From: an uncultured Acidimicrobiia bacterium
GTDB taxonomy: Bacteria; Actinomycetota; Acidimicrobiia; Spongiisociales; UBA5794
DNA length: 64,000 nt
Direction of reading: 5' to 3'
Assembly: GCA_963792895.1 (NCBI GenBank)
Contig: CAWBYA010000008.1
Span: 373,495-437,494 of the forward strand
The translations under genes and the position numbers were made by a program. The notes beneath the pieces are model-generated. The model searched no databases. It worked only from the letters and a program-made list of their open reading frames with translations, and had not been told where the DNA came from. Shown in pieces: positions 4,913 through 12,764 of the stretch. How positions within the stretch are numbered: position 1 is the stretch's first letter; every line of letters starts with the position of its first letter.

Positions 4913-5848
4913 ATGCGCCGCCTCCTCCTCATCGCCAACCCGTCGGCATCGGCATTCACGGGAGCCCTGCACCGACGGGTCGTCGGCGACCTGAGCGAAG
5001 CGTTCGAGGTTGCCCCGGCCTGGCCCTCGACACCCGCTGAGGCACGTCAGCTCGCAGCGGAGGCGGCCTTTGATGGATATGACGTCGTGGTGGCAATGGG
5101 CGGAGACGGGGTCGTCCACCACGTTGCCAACGGCATCGCCAGGACCAACACGGCACTTGGCATCGTGCCCGCCGGAACGACGAACGTCGTTGCCCGCATC
5201 GTCGGCCTGCCGTCAAAGCCCGCCAAGGCGGCGCTGGCGCTCGCGGCCGCCGAGGTGACGACTGTGCCGCTTGCCCACCTGGCGACCGATTCGCTCGGCG
5301 GCGCACGCTCGGAGTTCGGGGTCTTCGCGGCAGGCATCGGGTACGACGCCGAGATGGTGCAGATCGCAGAACAACGCCCGGCGTCCAAGTACTACTTCGG
5401 GTCCGTGCACTATGCCCGATCGGCGGCGGCGGCGCTGCTGTCGCGCTTCCGCACCAGGGCCCCGAACCTCAGGGTGGACTGCGACGGCGACCGGGTCGAT
5501 GCCGTATCCGTGATGGTGCAGGTCCACGATCCGTACACGTACTTCGGCAAGATGCCGCTCAGGCTGTCGCCGTCACCCGGCCCGGGGCTGACGGTGCTTG
5601 CGATCGAGTCGCTGGCCCTCCCGCGAGCCGTTGCGGTCTTGGGCCGCGCTACGTGGGGCCGGGATCTCACCCGCATCCCAGGGATGCATGTGTGGCACAA
5701 TCCGGCCAAGCTCATCATCGAGGCCGACCCGCGAAGTAGCTTCCAGGCCGACGGTGAGCTGCTCGGCTCGGCCGATTGGCTCGAGGTGACACCCGTCCCC
5801 GCCGGTCTGCGGGTCCTCACCCCTGTGGAGGCGGCGTCCGATCGATGA
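4913..5848 (+). CDS. diacylglycerol-kinase-catalytic-domain lipid kinase (YegS/DagK-like)
   Basis: MRRLLLIANPSAS...DVVVAMGGDGVVHHVANGI...LGIVPAGTTNV: DAGK_cat signature; start chosen at atg 4913. Confidence 0.65.
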   Translation: MRRLLLIANPSASAFTGALHRRVVGDLSEAFEVAPAWPSTPAEARQLAAEAAFDGYDVVVAMGGDGVVHHVANGIARTNTALGIVPAGTTNVVARIVGLPSKPAKAALALAAAEVTTVPLAHLATDSLGGARSEFGVFAAGIGYDAEMVQIAEQRPASKYYFGSVHYARSAAAALLSRFRTRAPNLRVDCDGDRVDAVSVMVQVHDPYTYFGKMPLRLSPSPGPGLTVLAIESLALPRAVAVLGRATWGRDLTRIPGMHVWHNPAKLIIEADPRSSFQADGELLGSADWLEVTPVPAGLRVLTPVEAASDR

Positions 5849-6680
5849 GCTCGATGTGTGGATACGGGATCGAGATCCCGTCTGCATCGAACCGCTTCTT
5901 GATCCGACGAAGAAACTCGCGCCTCGACGACCAGCGAAACGCCGGATGGACCTTGAACATGAGGCGAATCACGATGGCCGAGTCGTCGAAGCGCTCGACG
6001 CCGAGCATTTCGGGGGGGTCGAGAAAGGCGGACGCCCACTCGGGGTCGGCAACGAACCGGTTCACCTCGTCGGTGATCACGTCGATGGCCCGATCGACGT
6101 TCGTCTCATACGACACACCCAGATCGATCACCACCTGACTGAACTCCTGGGTCAGGTTGGACGCCACGGTCACTTGACCGTTGGGGACGTGGTGAACGTT
6201 CCCGTCCAAGTCGCGCAGCACAGTCGTGCGCAACCGGATCGCCTCGACCTTGCCCGATACGCCGCCAATCCTCACGACGTCGTCGATGCCGTACTGATCC
6301 TCGGCGATGATGAACAGGCCGGCAATGACATCCTTCACGAGGTCCTGCGCCCCGAATCCGATCGCAACGCCGACAACAGACCCCACCGCCAGGAAGGGGC
6401 CAATCGGAACGCCCCACACGTCGAGGAGCAACAGCACCAGAGCGACGCCGAGCAGGATCAGGACGAACATACGCGCCACGACCCAGAGCGTCCTGATGCG
6501 TTGGGCTCGCTCGTCTCCCCGTACGCCGCCCTCGCTGCTGGCGCGTGCGACGAGCCTCTTCATCAGGCGGTGGCCGCCGCGCCTCAGCACGAGCCACACC
6601 ACGAGCAGCATGGCAACGACGACGGCCGACTGGATGAGACCCTCCCGCAGCGGCGGCGCAGCCGCGATCAGCACCGTCAT
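5817..6680 (-). CDS. small-conductance mechanosensitive channel (MscS family)
   Basis: 287 aa; three N-terminal TM helices then MscS beta-domain signature DVVRIGGVSGKVEAIRLRTTVLRDLDGNVHHVPNG. Confidence 0.75.
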   Translation of the reverse strand: MTVLIAAAPPLREGLIQSAVVVAMLLVVWLVLRRGGHRLMKRLVARASSEGGVRGDERAQRIRTLWVVARMFVLILLGVALVLLLLDVWGVPIGPFLAVGSVVGVAIGFGAQDLVKDVIAGLFIIAEDQYGIDDVVRIGGVSGKVEAIRLRTTVLRDLDGNVHHVPNGQVTVASNLTQEFSQVVIDLGVSYETNVDRAIDVITDEVNRFVADPEWASAFLDPPEMLGVERFDDSAIVIRLMFKVHPAFRWSSRREFLRRIKKRFDADGISIPYPHIELIDRTPPPQG

Positions 6681-7864
6681 CGGACTGTGGCCCCGTAGCG
6701 GCGCCCAAGCTGGCGAGCCCCGATGTGCGTGAGGGCGACGAGCGCCGCGAAGCGGCTGCGCCGCGCAACGATGACGCCCATCGGCGCGCCGATCCGCTCG
6801 TCGAGCCTGCTTCTGGCCCCCGCAACATCGCCTGCGTCGACCGCAACCTGCGCCATTCTCACGATGTCATCTACCTCCTCTGTGTCGAATCGACCGCGCA
6901 GCTCGACTGCGAGGAGGCCGCCGACCTCGGCTGCCGTCGCTGCAATCAGGTCCTCAATGCGGCACAACGCATCTTCGCCCGGCGAGCCGGCGTCGGCATC
7001 GATCGCGGCCAAAGCCGATTCTCTCGTCGCCGTCCAACGCTCATCGAGGCCGATCGCAGCGCCTTGCCACACGCCGGACGACTCTCCCACCATTTGAACC
7101 AAGCCTGCGATGTCCGACAGGAGCTTGCCATGAGCGGTGCGTTTTCTGTCGATCTGCGTGCCGAGGAAGGCCACCAGCGGCTCCACCGCCGCTGGGGAGC
7201 CGGACGGCGGATCAGCCGCGAGAGGAAACACGATCGGATCGAAGTACCCACGATCGATGAGGGTCTCACGGACGCTGGAGAGCACGTTGGCGACGTCGTC
7301 GCCGGCGATACGATCGACCTTGTTGAGCACGAAGACGGTCTGGTCGGCATACCTGGCGAGAGGCGTCAGAAAGTCACGGTGGAGCGTTGAGTCGTGGTAC
7401 TTCTCCGGGTCGAGGACCCAGATCACGGCATCGACGTTGGCGATCACACGTTCCGTCGTGCGGCGGTGATGGCCCTCCACGGAATCCATGTCGGGGAGGT
7501 CGATGAGCGTGAGGCCGGGGAGCCGGGCTTGTGTCCTCAGGTCGGTGACACCCAACTCCGTGAGGAGATGCCCCGCAGAGGAGCTCGCATCCTCGGCAAC
7601 CCAGGCCAGCGGCTCGTCCGTATGCGGCCGGAGCCGGCTCACCGACGCAATCCTCTCGGCTGCGATTGCGTTGAGGAGGCTGGACTTGCCCGTCCCGGTG
7701 CCTCCCGCCAGAGCCACGAACAGCGTTGATCCGAGACCCCCAACCCGACGTCGCATGAGGTCGAGGGTTGTTCGGGCACGGGCGATATCTGCCGGCGGGG
7801 CGATCCCCTCGCCGCTCTCGACGAGCTGGTCGAGGGCGTCGTACAGCTCCGAGATGTCACGCAT
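6677..7864 (-). CDS. dynamin-family / YeeP-like GTPase (second of an overlapping pair)
   Basis: P-loop LAGGTGTGKSSLLNAI, G4 NKVD, long helical C-terminal region; 8-nt overlap with upstream paralogous GTPase. Confidence 0.55.
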   Translation of the reverse strand: MRDISELYDALDQLVESGEGIAPPADIARARTTLDLMRRRVGGLGSTLFVALAGGTGTGKSSLLNAIAAERIASVSRLRPHTDEPLAWVAEDASSSAGHLLTELGVTDLRTQARLPGLTLIDLPDMDSVEGHHRRTTERVIANVDAVIWVLDPEKYHDSTLHRDFLTPLARYADQTVFVLNKVDRIAGDDVANVLSSVRETLIDRGYFDPIVFPLAADPPSGSPAAVEPLVAFLGTQIDRKRTAHGKLLSDIAGLVQMVGESSGVWQGAAIGLDERWTATRESALAAIDADAGSPGEDALCRIEDLIAATAAEVGGLLAVELRGRFDTEEVDDIVRMAQVAVDAGDVAGARSRLDERIGAPMGVIVARRSRFAALVALTHIGARQLGRRYGATVR

Positions 7865-9341
7865 TGGCGGCCTCGGCTGGGTCTGTCGCTTCTGGGTCTG
7901 GAGTCGCCATCAGCTCGCTACCGATGCTCTCGACGTTGAGTGGGCCCGTGAGCTCTGTCAGCTCCGCAATCGCGTCCGGCCCCGGATACTGCCCGAGCTG
8001 GACCTGGAACCGTTGCTCATCGTCGCGGACGATCTCGGCAGCCATCTCAGCCAGCCTGCGCTTCGCGGCCGCCACAGCTGGATCGACACCCCCCTTGAGC
8101 CTGCGCCGGATACGCCACTTGATCCTGGCCGGGTCACCGAGCGCCCGCTGCATGACGGCCATACGAGTATCTCTCGCTCGCTCGGGCGACATCGCCCGCT
8201 TGGACTGCTCCTCGACGACGGCAGCGACCTCGACCTCCCATCGCAACAGACGGATGCGAGCGTCCGTTGCTGCACCGGCGGCGTGACGCCACAGTCCCTG
8301 ACCTTGGCTCTCGAGGAGCTCGCCGCCGCCGGGCATCCGGAACCAGGCGGACGCAGTACGGCCTGCGGCTGCACCGATCTCTCGTGTGATGACGGCGGCC
8401 AGCCGCTCGGCACGTACCGGCCAGGCGGTCTCATTGGACGATGCCAAAGCGGCGGCCACCAACTCGGCAACCGCCTCCGCGGTTCTCTCATACTCGCTGT
8501 TCGCTGCAGCGGCTAGATCGGCCCGTGCCGTTCGCAATGCGTCAAACGGCCGAACGAGACCTGCTGCGATCCGCAGAATGGCGCCTTCGCGGGCTGCGAT
8601 AGCGTCGTCGAGCATCCGGTCACGAGCCGGGCCGTGGAGGTCGACCAGCGCTTCGTCGAGGCCGCCCAGCCCGGTGGTGTCTTCTCCAATCGTGAAGATC
8701 GGCAGCGAGCGCCCGGCGGCGGCGAGACGTGCCTCGAAGTCGGCAACGACCTCGTCCCCGGTCCCGATCGTCCGGTTGAGCACCACCCAGCACGGGATTC
8801 CGAGGCCGTCCAACCAGTCCAGGAGCGACCATGTGGCGTTGTCGGCATAGCGAGCAGGCGTGACGACGACGATCACCAGATCGGCGAGGCTGAGCGCGCG
8901 GTGACTCGGGGCACCGACGCTGTCCGCGGGCATGTCGATGAGGGTCGCCCGCTCCGTGATGATCCCGTGGTCGCGACGGAAGCGCACCGGGGCCGCCGAG
9001 GCGCGCATCCTGCGCTCGACGTCCTTGCGCGTACCTTCCTCGAGGCGAGTGGAGATGATTGCGACAGGGGACGTGGTCGTGGGTCGCGTCGCACCCTCGG
9101 GGCTGTGCTGCTCGCTCGTGATCCGGTTGGCGAGATAGGACTTGCCCGCACCGCCCGGACCCGCAATCGCAACGATGAGAGGCGTGTCGGGCCGGTCGAG
9201 ACGGGGGAGGATGTAGCCCGTGACGCTCCGGACGACGTCGCGCCGCGCCTGGTCGGCTGCGCGATCCGGGAGCGGCATGCCGTCGAGCAGCTGCGCCAGG
9301 CGTTTGAGCCGTACCCTCTCCTCCGACAACACTGCGCGCAT
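7857..9341 (-). CDS. dynamin-family GTPase (first of an overlapping pair)
   Basis: P-loop IAGPGGAGKSYLANRI, VVLNRT, helical C-terminus; start set at atg 9339-9341 (MRAVLSEERVRL) because upstream part of the 821-aa ORF runs through mca in another frame. Confidence 0.55.
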   Translation of the reverse strand: MRAVLSEERVRLKRLAQLLDGMPLPDRAADQARRDVVRSVTGYILPRLDRPDTPLIVAIAGPGGAGKSYLANRITSEQHSPEGATRPTTTSPVAIISTRLEEGTRKDVERRMRASAAPVRFRRDHGIITERATLIDMPADSVGAPSHRALSLADLVIVVVTPARYADNATWSLLDWLDGLGIPCWVVLNRTIGTGDEVVADFEARLAAAGRSLPIFTIGEDTTGLGGLDEALVDLHGPARDRMLDDAIAAREGAILRIAAGLVRPFDALRTARADLAAAANSEYERTAEAVAELVAAALASSNETAWPVRAERLAAVITREIGAAAGRTASAWFRMPGGGELLESQGQGLWRHAAGAATDARIRLLRWEVEVAAVVEEQSKRAMSPERARDTRMAVMQRALGDPARIKWRIRRRLKGGVDPAVAAAKRRLAEMAAEIVRDDEQRFQVQLGQYPGPDAIAELTELTGPLNVESIGSELMATPDPEATDPAEAANA

Positions 9342-9399: not shown

Positions 9400-10242
9400 T
9401 CACAAGCCGGCAAACAGGTCCTTGGCGCCTTCCGGCAACGGAACCCTCGCACGCAACAGCTCGAAGTCCTCGTACGGATAGACCTCGGCGACGACATCGG
9501 TCGGGAGCTTGAACCAGAAGCCGTCCGGGTCGATCTGGGTGCGGTGCGCCCTGAGCGCATCCCGACCGACCTCCAAGGTGTCGGCGACGTCGACCGAGAC
9601 GAGGAGCTTGCCGTCGTCGGTTGCGCCGTCGAGGCTGTCGATCCACCTCTGGAACGGGGATTCGAGGCCACGATCGATCGACGCATCGTGAAGCGCCCTG
9701 ATACGACGCACGGTGAAGACGGGGGCAAACAGCCTCGCTGCCGACCACGGGTTCCCCGTCCCCGGGAAGCGGTTCGGGTCGGCGGCCGCATCGAAGAGGT
9801 CGAGTGCCAGCCGGTGGACGGCGAGATGATCGGGATGGGGATAGCGCTCATGATCGTCATATCCGAAGATGACGTCGGGGCGGAGGTCGCGCACGATCGT
9901 GACGAGCCGCCCAAGCACTTCCTCGTGTGATGCGTTGACGAGGGCAGCCGGGTGAGCGTTCGCCTCCGTGTCTGGCATGCCGGAGTCCCGGTAGCCGAGC
10001 TCTCTGACCTCGCCGTAGCCGATGATCCGGGCCGCTTCCAGCAGTTCCTCCTTCCGCAGTTCGGCAAGCCGTTCTTTGACGTCTGGCTTGTCCATCGCAG
10101 GATTGAGGATGTCTCCGGCTTCCCCGCCCGTTGCGGTGACGAGCACGCAGTGGACGCCGGCCGCCGCATAGTGAGCGACCGTCGCGGCGCCCTTCGAGCT
10201 CTCGTCGTCGGGGTGGGCGTGGATTGCGAGCAAGGTGCGCAT
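9400..10242 (-). CDS. mca: mycothiol S-conjugate amidase
   Basis: 280 aa; near full-length resemblance to mycobacterial Mca (LAIHAHPDDESSKGAATVAHYA...GGEAGDILNPAMD...HPDH...ELFAGL C-terminus); LmbE/PIG-L zinc motif. Confidence 0.8.
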   Translation of the reverse strand: MRTLLAIHAHPDDESSKGAATVAHYAAAGVHCVLVTATGGEAGDILNPAMDKPDVKERLAELRKEELLEAARIIGYGEVRELGYRDSGMPDTEANAHPAALVNASHEEVLGRLVTIVRDLRPDVIFGYDDHERYPHPDHLAVHRLALDLFDAAADPNRFPGTGNPWSAARLFAPVFTVRRIRALHDASIDRGLESPFQRWIDSLDGATDDGKLLVSVDVADTLEVGRDALRAHRTQIDPDGFWFKLPTDVVAEVYPYEDFELLRARVPLPEGAKDLFAGL

Positions 10243-12422: not shown

Positions 12423-12764
12423 TCAGCCCTCCGGCGGGTAATAGAGGAAGAAGTCTGCGATCACCTGCGAGGCCGCGGCGACGTCGTCATCGGTCCATCC
12501 GCCCCTCTTGCGCACGACCACCTGATTGGACGCCACGAACACGTGGTTCACGGCACTGTCGCCTGCGAACAGCCTCGCAGCGAGCTGCGCAGGGAACTCG
12601 GCGGTCTCGGCGGCTTCCTCAGCCGATGCGAAACTCGCCCCGTCCTGGCCGGAAATGCTGCGGTCGGTGTCGAACATCACGACGTCGTCCAGACGGGTGG
12701 CAGCGACTTGGATCGGTTGGCCCATGGGCTGTCGTACCTCCTCACAGCGGGTGCGAACCGGCAT
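12423..12764 (-). CDS. Nfu/NifU N-terminal-domain-like small protein
   Basis: about 100 aa; pattern AARLFAGDSAVNHVFVASNQVVVRKRGGW...VIADFFLYYP resembles Nfu_N scaffold domain; true start may be the internal Met (MGQPIQ) at about 12725. Confidence 0.45.
   Translation of the reverse strand: MPVRTRCEEVRQPMGQPIQVAATRLDDVVMFDTDRSISGQDGASFASAEEAAETAEFPAQLAARLFAGDSAVNHVFVASNQVVVRKRGGWTDDDVAAASQVIADFFLYYPPEG

Follow-up and report, generated by a model that had tools for sequence, protein, structure and literature searches.

The stretch of DNA analysed here, further called the window, comprises 64,000 nucleotides (nt) from an uncultured Acidimicrobiia bacterium and carries on its minus strand two overlapping genes, termed A and B, which code for dynamin-like GTPases. 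It is probable that these two genes are the DynA-type and the DynB-type member of a widespread two-gene dynamin-like module and that their products act as a heterotypic, probably soluble complex that is recruited by its partners. Judging from the alignments and model scores described below, the pair appears as a reduced, anchor-less form of the known DynA/DynB kind, from which the G domain and a helical bundle remain. The two genes and their junction are located as follows:

7857..9341, minus strand: gene A, DynA-type dynamin-like GTPase of 494 amino acids (aa), G domain and helical bundle.
6677..7864, minus strand: gene B, DynB-type dynamin-like GTPase of 395 aa, G domain and six-helix bundle.
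7857..7864, minus strand: stop/start overlap of A and B, ATGCGTGA, 8 nt.

These coordinates come from the open reading frame (ORF) listing and translation, which bear out the original prediction of two GTPases of 494 and 395 aa that overlap by 8 nt. The start of A at 9341 is backed by homologs beginning at the same Met, while the ORF that contains it runs further upstream. The two proteins had been taken for paralogs, and indeed their G domains share 30% identity over 128 aa (BLASTP, E 2e-7); the profile-profile comparison of A with B gave a probability of 99.7% and E 7e-27 over 194 columns. No second GTPase pair was found elsewhere within the 64-kb window; the contig on which the pair lies is 508 kb long. 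The octamer ATGCGTGA is dual-coding: A ends in it with [D/N]-A, and B begins in it with M-R-D. This double duty explains the conservation of the two termini, in spite of the disordered and otherwise variable tail of A. An identical octamer is present at the junctions of loci L001, L004-L006, L008, L010, L016, L027 and L031.

The assignment to the DynA/DynB family is based on the comparison with the Streptomyces pair. In Streptomyces, DynA and DynB are divisome-associated stabilisers of FtsZ rings, which in S. venezuelae are vnz_12110 and vnz_12105, and the two transmembrane (TM) segments of DynB anchor this protein and bind SepX, while DynB recruits the cytoplasmic DynA (PMC8748795; bioRxiv 10.1101/2025.06.23.661029). 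The association of the Streptomyces pair with the divisome involves FtsZ, SepF2, SsgB and SepX, and the pair is under developmental (WhiH) control. As a reference for DynA, the primers ss65 and ss66 for S. venezuelae dynA (supplement of Bush et al. 2022, PMC8748795) were searched in contigs. The 20-nt gene-specific part of ss65 gave an exact match to one metagenome contig, L086, and the reverse complement of ss66 has an equally exact match on it, where the same ORF (236-1867) ends. This ORF codes for 543 aa with the P-loop Lys at position 74, which is also the position of the P-loop Lys of DynA according to the published K74A mutant; it contains no hydrophobic segment, in agreement with the cytoplasmic location of DynA (bioRxiv 10.1101/2025.06.23.661029). 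The L086 DynA scored 131 bits on the model of A-type proteins and 51 bits on that of B-type proteins, and BLASTP aligned it with an Arthrobacter A protein at 40% identity over 453 aa and with the window A at 32% over 285 aa (E 1e-18). The next gene on L086 starts at 1869, 1 nt after the dynA stop (1865-1867), so there is no stop/start overlap at this junction; its product scored 173 bits on the B model versus 82 on the A model and shares 42% identity over 203 aa with window B (BLASTP, E 3e-32).

On these comparisons DynA is to be regarded as A-type and the gene that follows it as B-type, and the window pair is assigned to the DynA/DynB family, orthology aside. The opposite assignment of DynA, as a B-type protein, was suggested by its primer-derived N-terminus MTLDERP, which resembles the N-termini of Micrococcales B-type proteins, and was ruled out by the full DynA on L086. 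The likeness to bacterial dynamin pairs that had been proposed from the sequence holds as real homology for DynA/DynB, by model scores and BLASTP, and only at the level of fold for IniA/IniC. With the Streptomyces pair the window pair shares the family, the order of a DynA-type gene followed by a DynB-type gene, DxPD at G3 in both types, [N/D]R in place of NKxD in the A type and N[K/Q]xD in the B type; window A is, like DynA, devoid of any hydrophobic segment. The differences lie in B, that has none of the two TM segments of published DynB and is ~130-170 aa shorter than the long B-type proteins, in the degenerate G3 of window A (DMPA), in the MscS gene (coding for a mechanosensitive channel) joined to the window operon, and in the host, an Acidimicrobiia-type organism instead of a filamentous actinomycete that sporulates. 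Next to the window pair there is no ftsZ, no ssgB and no sepX that could be recognised, SepX itself being poorly conserved (<10% identity).

Both proteins belong to the dynamin superfamily. B passes the Pfam Dynamin_N model (41.9 bits, cutoff 27), whereas A, with 13.9 bits, stays under the cutoff and is placed there by its predicted fold and by its longer homologs, which reach 43-48 bits and which the A profile recovers at E 1e-44; for the long homologs of both types taken together the Dynamin_N scores are 33-48 bits. The generic MMR_HSR1 model is above its cutoff for both proteins (24.3 vs 21.9 for A). In the AlphaFold2 models (mean pLDDT of 89.9 for B and 86.0 for A) each protein consists of an N-terminal helical hairpin, the G domain and a C-terminal helical bundle, so that the long helical tails read from the sequence are also seen in the predicted structures:

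A: N-terminal helical hairpin; G domain at residues ~55-235; helical bundle at 237-465; disordered acidic tail at 469-494; no hydrophobic hairpin.
B: N-terminal helices; G domain at residues ~48-225; six-helix bundle at 228-389; no TM helices.

Structure searches place dynamin-family structures first, and the Foldseek top 50 for A consists of the dynamin family only. A helical bundle composed of N- and C-terminal helices, following the G domain, and a fold match to solved dynamin-like proteins (DLPs) are therefore found in both A and B, and the dynamin-like identity claimed for them stands. A membrane-binding element, be it a paddle, a PH domain, a lipid-interacting loop or a TM hairpin, is found in neither. 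Structure prediction, which had been proposed as a check for stalk and paddle domains, thus gave the helical bundle in both proteins and no paddle at the tip of the stalk. Another dynamin trait, the nucleotide-dependent dimerisation of G domains with stimulated GTPase activity, is predicted for A and B by analogy. No curated NCBIfam family claims A, B or their long homologs, a PHROGs search returned nothing relevant, and a look-up of the protein clusters of A and B gave no informative name.

Among solved structures, A and B share the G domain and a neck-type bundle with the mitofusin/Fzo1 'minimal GTPase domain' constructs (9KFD, 5GNS, 6JFK), at ~13% sequence identity. Full-length mitofusins possess in addition HB2 and a TM hairpin and fuse membranes, hence the likeness is to truncated laboratory constructs. 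The sequence similarity of the window pair to Campylobacter jejuni DLP1/DLP2 (PDB 5OWV; PMC6104087) is only remote; these are proteins of ~600-730 aa with a full trunk, a membrane-binding tip and a canonical DxPG at G3, that tether membranes (PMC6104087). As to IniA/IniC (PDB 6J72/6J73; PMC6715688), IniA has, besides a neck and a trunk, a loop that interacts with lipids (PMC6715688) and was not matched at E <= 1 in four sequence searches of the PDB, and the gene upstream of the window pair is mca and not iniB. IniA/IniC represent a different branch of the dynamin superfamily.

The nucleotide-binding motifs of the two proteins, with the invariance in B judged over 28 diverse homologs, are as follows:

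9138..9161, minus strand: A, G1/P-loop GPGGAGKS, residues 61-68; G61, G64, G66, K67 and S68 invariant in the A family.
9075..9086, minus strand: A, switch I RPTT, residues 86-89; invariant in the A family.
8925..8936, minus strand: A, G3 DMPA, residues 136-139; D136 and P138 invariant.
8772..8777, minus strand: A, G4 position N189-R190 (LNRT), no NKxD; N189-R190 invariant, family pattern [N/D]-R-x-P.
7679..7705, minus strand: B, G1/P-loop GGTGTGKSS, residues 54-62; invariant.
7619..7630, minus strand: B, G2/switch I RPHT, residues 79-82; R79, P80 and T82 invariant.
7481..7501, minus strand: B, G3 DLPDMDS, residues 122-128; D122, L123, P124 and D127 invariant, D125 nearly so.
7313..7324, minus strand: B, canonical G4 NKVD, residues 181-184; N181, K182 and D184 invariant.

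When compared with the canonical set, both proteins have G1 and G2, the Gly of G3 is replaced in both, and the G4 position is NKVD in B and NR in A. In B it is an Asp that replaces the Gly of the canonical DxxG, and the motif D-x-P-D-x-D-S occurs also in the long forms and in the Streptomyces-type DynB. Across 148 A-family representatives (P0168-P0315), G3 is DxPD in 138 and the G4 position reads [N/D]-R-x-P, never NKxD. The Streptomyces-type proteins of L086 have DAPD and DRVP in DynA, and DLPDHDS and NQVD in its partner. Since they deviate alike, the non-canonical G3 and G4 of A and B do not exclude dynamin membership. The atypical G3, noticed at the outset as DMPA in A and DLPD in B, is real and conserved; DxPD is the signature that marks the entire family, A-type and B-type proteins alike, and DynA-type proteins consistently lack NKxD. 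Window A strays further from its own family, with DMPA instead of DxPD: in the wider A family, 93% of the proteins have D as the fourth G3 residue, whereas the window's clade has A or P. The studied DynA type (L086:236-1867) is itself without the canonical Gly of G3 (DAPD) and without NKxD (DRVP), which may mean that the nucleotide specificity of DynA-type proteins differs from that of a standard GTPase; a literature search limited in reach found no discussion of these missing residues. The family signature, with DxPD in switch II and with NKxD missing from DynA-type members, raises a testable question on the nucleotide specificity of DynA-type proteins, Streptomyces DynA included.

The lack of anchors in the window pair can be traced by alignment with the long forms. 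Long B-type proteins (~525-565 aa) contain two strong hydrophobic helices ~365 and ~405 residues past the P-loop, and many long A-type proteins contain one hydrophobic hairpin ~390-410 residues past it. No segment in either protein reaches 1.6 on the 19-residue Kyte-Doolittle scale, the maxima of the two being 1.45 and 1.25. Relative to the long forms, B is characterised by a clean deletion of a ~65-aa insert and of the ~75-aa TM hairpin, with the flanking helices, including the C-terminal helix, kept; in A, a ~40-aa insert and the hydrophobic hairpin are deleted and the flanking helices are likewise kept. Other Acidimicrobiia (L018, L024, L026, L029 and others) have TM-bearing forms at this very syntenic locus, and therefore the loss of the anchor happened in place. 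A third, 'ultrashort' grade was also noticed, with B of ~300 aa and A of ~430 aa (L028, L030, L032, L035, L037, L039). One syntenic Acidimicrobiia locus thus exists in three grades (TM-anchored, anchor-less and ~300 aa), which is a natural series for asking what the role of the anchor is. The metagenome-assembled genome CAYLIR01 ('uncultured Acidimicrobiaceae SRP144503_co3_73') has two pairs, a very short one beside MscS in the syntenic locus (L039) and a long, TM-bearing, Chloroflexota-like one elsewhere (L065), and some Acidimicrobiia may hence keep an anchored pair beside the reduced one.

The functional unit is A together with B. In 85 loci, collected from the contexts of homologs and by scanning a single genome for each species, an A-type gene stands immediately before a B-type gene in every locus having upstream DNA, and 75 of the 80 scored A/B junctions overlap, most often by 4 nt (45 junctions) or 8 nt (23 junctions) and in a few cases by 1 or 11 nt, which implies that coupled translation of A and B would be a trait of the family. 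The module was found in Acidimicrobiia, Chloroflexota (Limnocylindria), Acidobacteriota, Thermoleophilia and in cultured Micrococcales and Actinomycetales, among them the genera Arthrobacter, Dermabacter, Sanguibacter, Actinotignum, Cellulomonas and Rhodoglobus. The HMMER scan with the A profile gave 1,345 clusters of 50% identity at E <= 1e-30, and more than 500 homologs of the short B were found at E <= 1e-5, nearly all of 390-450 aa, the few with a source name being Acidimicrobiia. The DynA/DynB module, that is usually discussed for filamentous actinomycetes, is therefore a large cross-phylum family. Outside Acidimicrobiia the pair has no conserved neighbour, the best neighbour cluster covering 4 loci.

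No A-B fusion was found among the long A-family representatives, each of which has a single P-loop. Large additional regions are present at the N- or C-terminus of some A-family representatives of 750-1387 aa (P0170, P0176, P0190, P0195, P0205, P0248 and others), and P0140, of 890 aa, combines Asn_synthase (PF00733) with Dynamin_N. Several family members (P0003, P0007, P0070, P0092, P0133, P0146 and others) carry public labels such as 'GTP-binding protein EngB required for normal cell division', '50S ribosome-binding GTPase' or 'energy-coupling factor transporter ATP-binding protein EcfA2'. These labels stem from generic P-loop matches and are misleading, and the present result corrects them, though nothing in it overturns the current understanding.

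How could such a pair work? B retains the full G1, G2 and G4 and the unusual switch II DLPDxDS, and A retains the P-loop, the Thr of switch I and the Asp of G3. By analogy with the published DynA/DynB and Campylobacter DLP1/2 pairs, A and B would assemble into a heterotypic complex under nucleotide control, with B probably as the specific GTPase and A probably as a divergent nucleotide-binding protein that is its partner or regulator. Neither protein can insert into the bilayer, and the complex would therefore probably serve as a soluble switch or scaffold and not be itself a membrane-remodelling machine; protein partners would recruit it to the place where it acts, most likely the machinery of division or of the membrane.

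Several points weigh against this proposal. Heterodimerisation, nucleotide specificity and the cellular role of A and B are all inferred. Switch II of A is degenerate in the window's clade (DMPA, DTPP and similar), hence A may not hydrolyse nucleotide, and the TM segments of DynB are needed for at least one partner (SepX), so a DynB without them may act differently. The reference itself has its limits: the dynB primer ss21 has no match in L086 and the lysine of the partner gene is at position 110, not 129, thus L086 belongs to a close relative of S. venezuelae and perhaps not to the species itself; the contig also breaks off within the DynB-type gene, so that the TM segments are not directly seen. 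The link to DynA/DynB, moreover, denotes family membership by sequence comparison and not phylogeny-based orthology.

The genes that flank the pair have to be considered before the alternatives are weighed. The gene order on the minus strand is mca, A, B and MscS, as given by the ORF listing and translation, with mca upstream of A at a spacing of 58 nt:

9400..10242, minus strand: mca (mycothiol conjugate amidase), 280 aa; TIGR03446 at 294.4 bits vs a cutoff of 277.15.
6677-6680, minus strand: overlap of B and MscS, ATGA, 4 nt; the MscS start lies within the B stop.
5817..6680, minus strand: MscS-type mechanosensitive channel, 287 aa; Pfam MS_channel_2nd at 65.5 bits and MS_channel_3rd at 34.6 bits.

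In Acidimicrobiia the conserved order is VanW/PASTA-(mca)-A-B-(MscS)-diacylglycerol kinase-phosphoribosyltransferase-aldehyde dehydrogenase. The MscS gene stands directly after B in 16 of the 35 syntenic loci of this class and in none outside it, while mca lies next to A in some of the homologous loci but is missing, or set apart by an intervening gene, in others; outside Acidimicrobiia it was not found by the pair. MscS is accordingly a variable accessory, co-transcribed here and outside the conserved module, and mca is a syntenic neighbour only. The 'envelope-stress neighbourhood' that had been read from the two flanking genes is not supported, their adjacency being lineage-specific synteny. 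A functional link of the pair to MscS is possible.

The same genes could nonetheless suggest an envelope-stress module, in which the pair works with the co-transcribed MscS, and perhaps with Mca, in membrane repair or in osmotic or thiol stress, with the channel supplying the lost membrane contact. The 4-nt overlap of MscS with the B stop speaks for it, as does the presence of MscS in 6 of the 7 loci with the shortest B (~300 aa), and other bacterial DLPs (IniA, Bacillus DynA, Cj-DLP1/2) were proposed to act in membrane stress. Yet MscS is missing from 19 of the 35 syntenic loci and from every locus outside the class, its presence does not track the loss of TM segments (of the TM-bearing loci roughly half have it after B, and of the 18 loci of the short grade, to which the window belongs, 5 do), and the order with mca, described above, is a conserved synteny of housekeeping genes; we regard this explanation as unlikely. 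The idea that MscS compensates for the TM loss was dropped, as the counts by grade do not support it. Highly doubtful is also a more specific scheme, by which, in this Acidimicrobiia lineage, an anchored DynA/DynB pair was turned into a fully soluble 'minimal GTPase domain' pair that now has its membrane contact via the translationally coupled MscS, so that a GTPase-channel complex would let division or membrane maintenance respond to the tension of the membrane or to the osmotic state. One may ask as well whether the pair is an evolutionary relic, that is a DynA/DynB pair decaying after the loss of its anchor, with its function gone. Such a decay would fit the stepwise loss of length seen at one syntenic locus (TM-bearing, then short, then ~300-aa B) and the degenerate G3 of A in the window's clade, and defective DynAB homologs in unicellular bacteria were read as genomic erosion in a 2025 preprint (bioRxiv 10.1101/2025.06.23.661029). 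Both frames are intact, however, the short form has the more than 500 homologs counted above, the G1-G4 residues of B, like many residues of its helical domain, stay invariant in homologs with as little as 37% identity, a sign of purifying selection, the overlap for translational coupling is conserved, and the models are confident and well folded, which leaves a decaying pair a very slight probability.

Two further explanations start from database matches. GTPases of ribosome assembly, of the Era/EngA/EngB kind, are what the public annotations suggest, and MMR_HSR1 exceeds its cutoff for both A and B, while a PDB profile search with A puts EngA/Der first (E 2e-6). The Era/EngA-type matches, though, span little beyond the P-loop, and the NCBIfam models of these families stay at 12-36 bits against cutoffs of 116-307 (Era 35.9 vs 237, EngA 25.2 vs 306.7, YsxC 21.5 vs 124.45); a KH domain or any other domain for RNA binding is lacking, both proteins have a helical bundle of the mitofusin/BDLP type, and Era and EngA are absent from the Foldseek top 50 for A. 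A placement of both proteins in an Era/EngA-like family, which the original prediction had named as its refutation, did not occur, and a ribosomal role is credited with next to no probability. Dynamin-like GTPases also constitute the two-component Eleos (LeoA/LeoBC) system of anti-phage defence, and the PADLOC LeoA model matched B at 38 bits (E 2.4e-10), over its G domain only, while that of LeoBC matched a long A homolog at 37 bits over the helical region. This reflects a remote homology of the G domain, which in the long A forms extends to the helical region; but the scores are low and come mostly from the G domain, PADLOC has no hit for window A, and full-length LeoA/LeoBC matches in a defence-island context were obtained for neither A nor B. 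The pair resides, moreover, in a housekeeping neighbourhood that is vertically conserved across the class and not in a variable island, and it is directly homologous to the division proteins DynA/DynB, so a defence role is extremely improbable.

At the distal end of the operon, the 3' ends of MscS (minus strand) and of a convergent diacylglycerol-kinase-like gene (plus strand, ~4913-5848) overlap by ~32 nt (5817-5848). On the other side, a small ORF of ~100-113 aa with no Pfam hit lies between the pyruvate kinase gene and the VanW/PASTA gene, in the window at 12423-12764 (minus strand) and also at L001:860-1156, and it may represent a conserved small protein.

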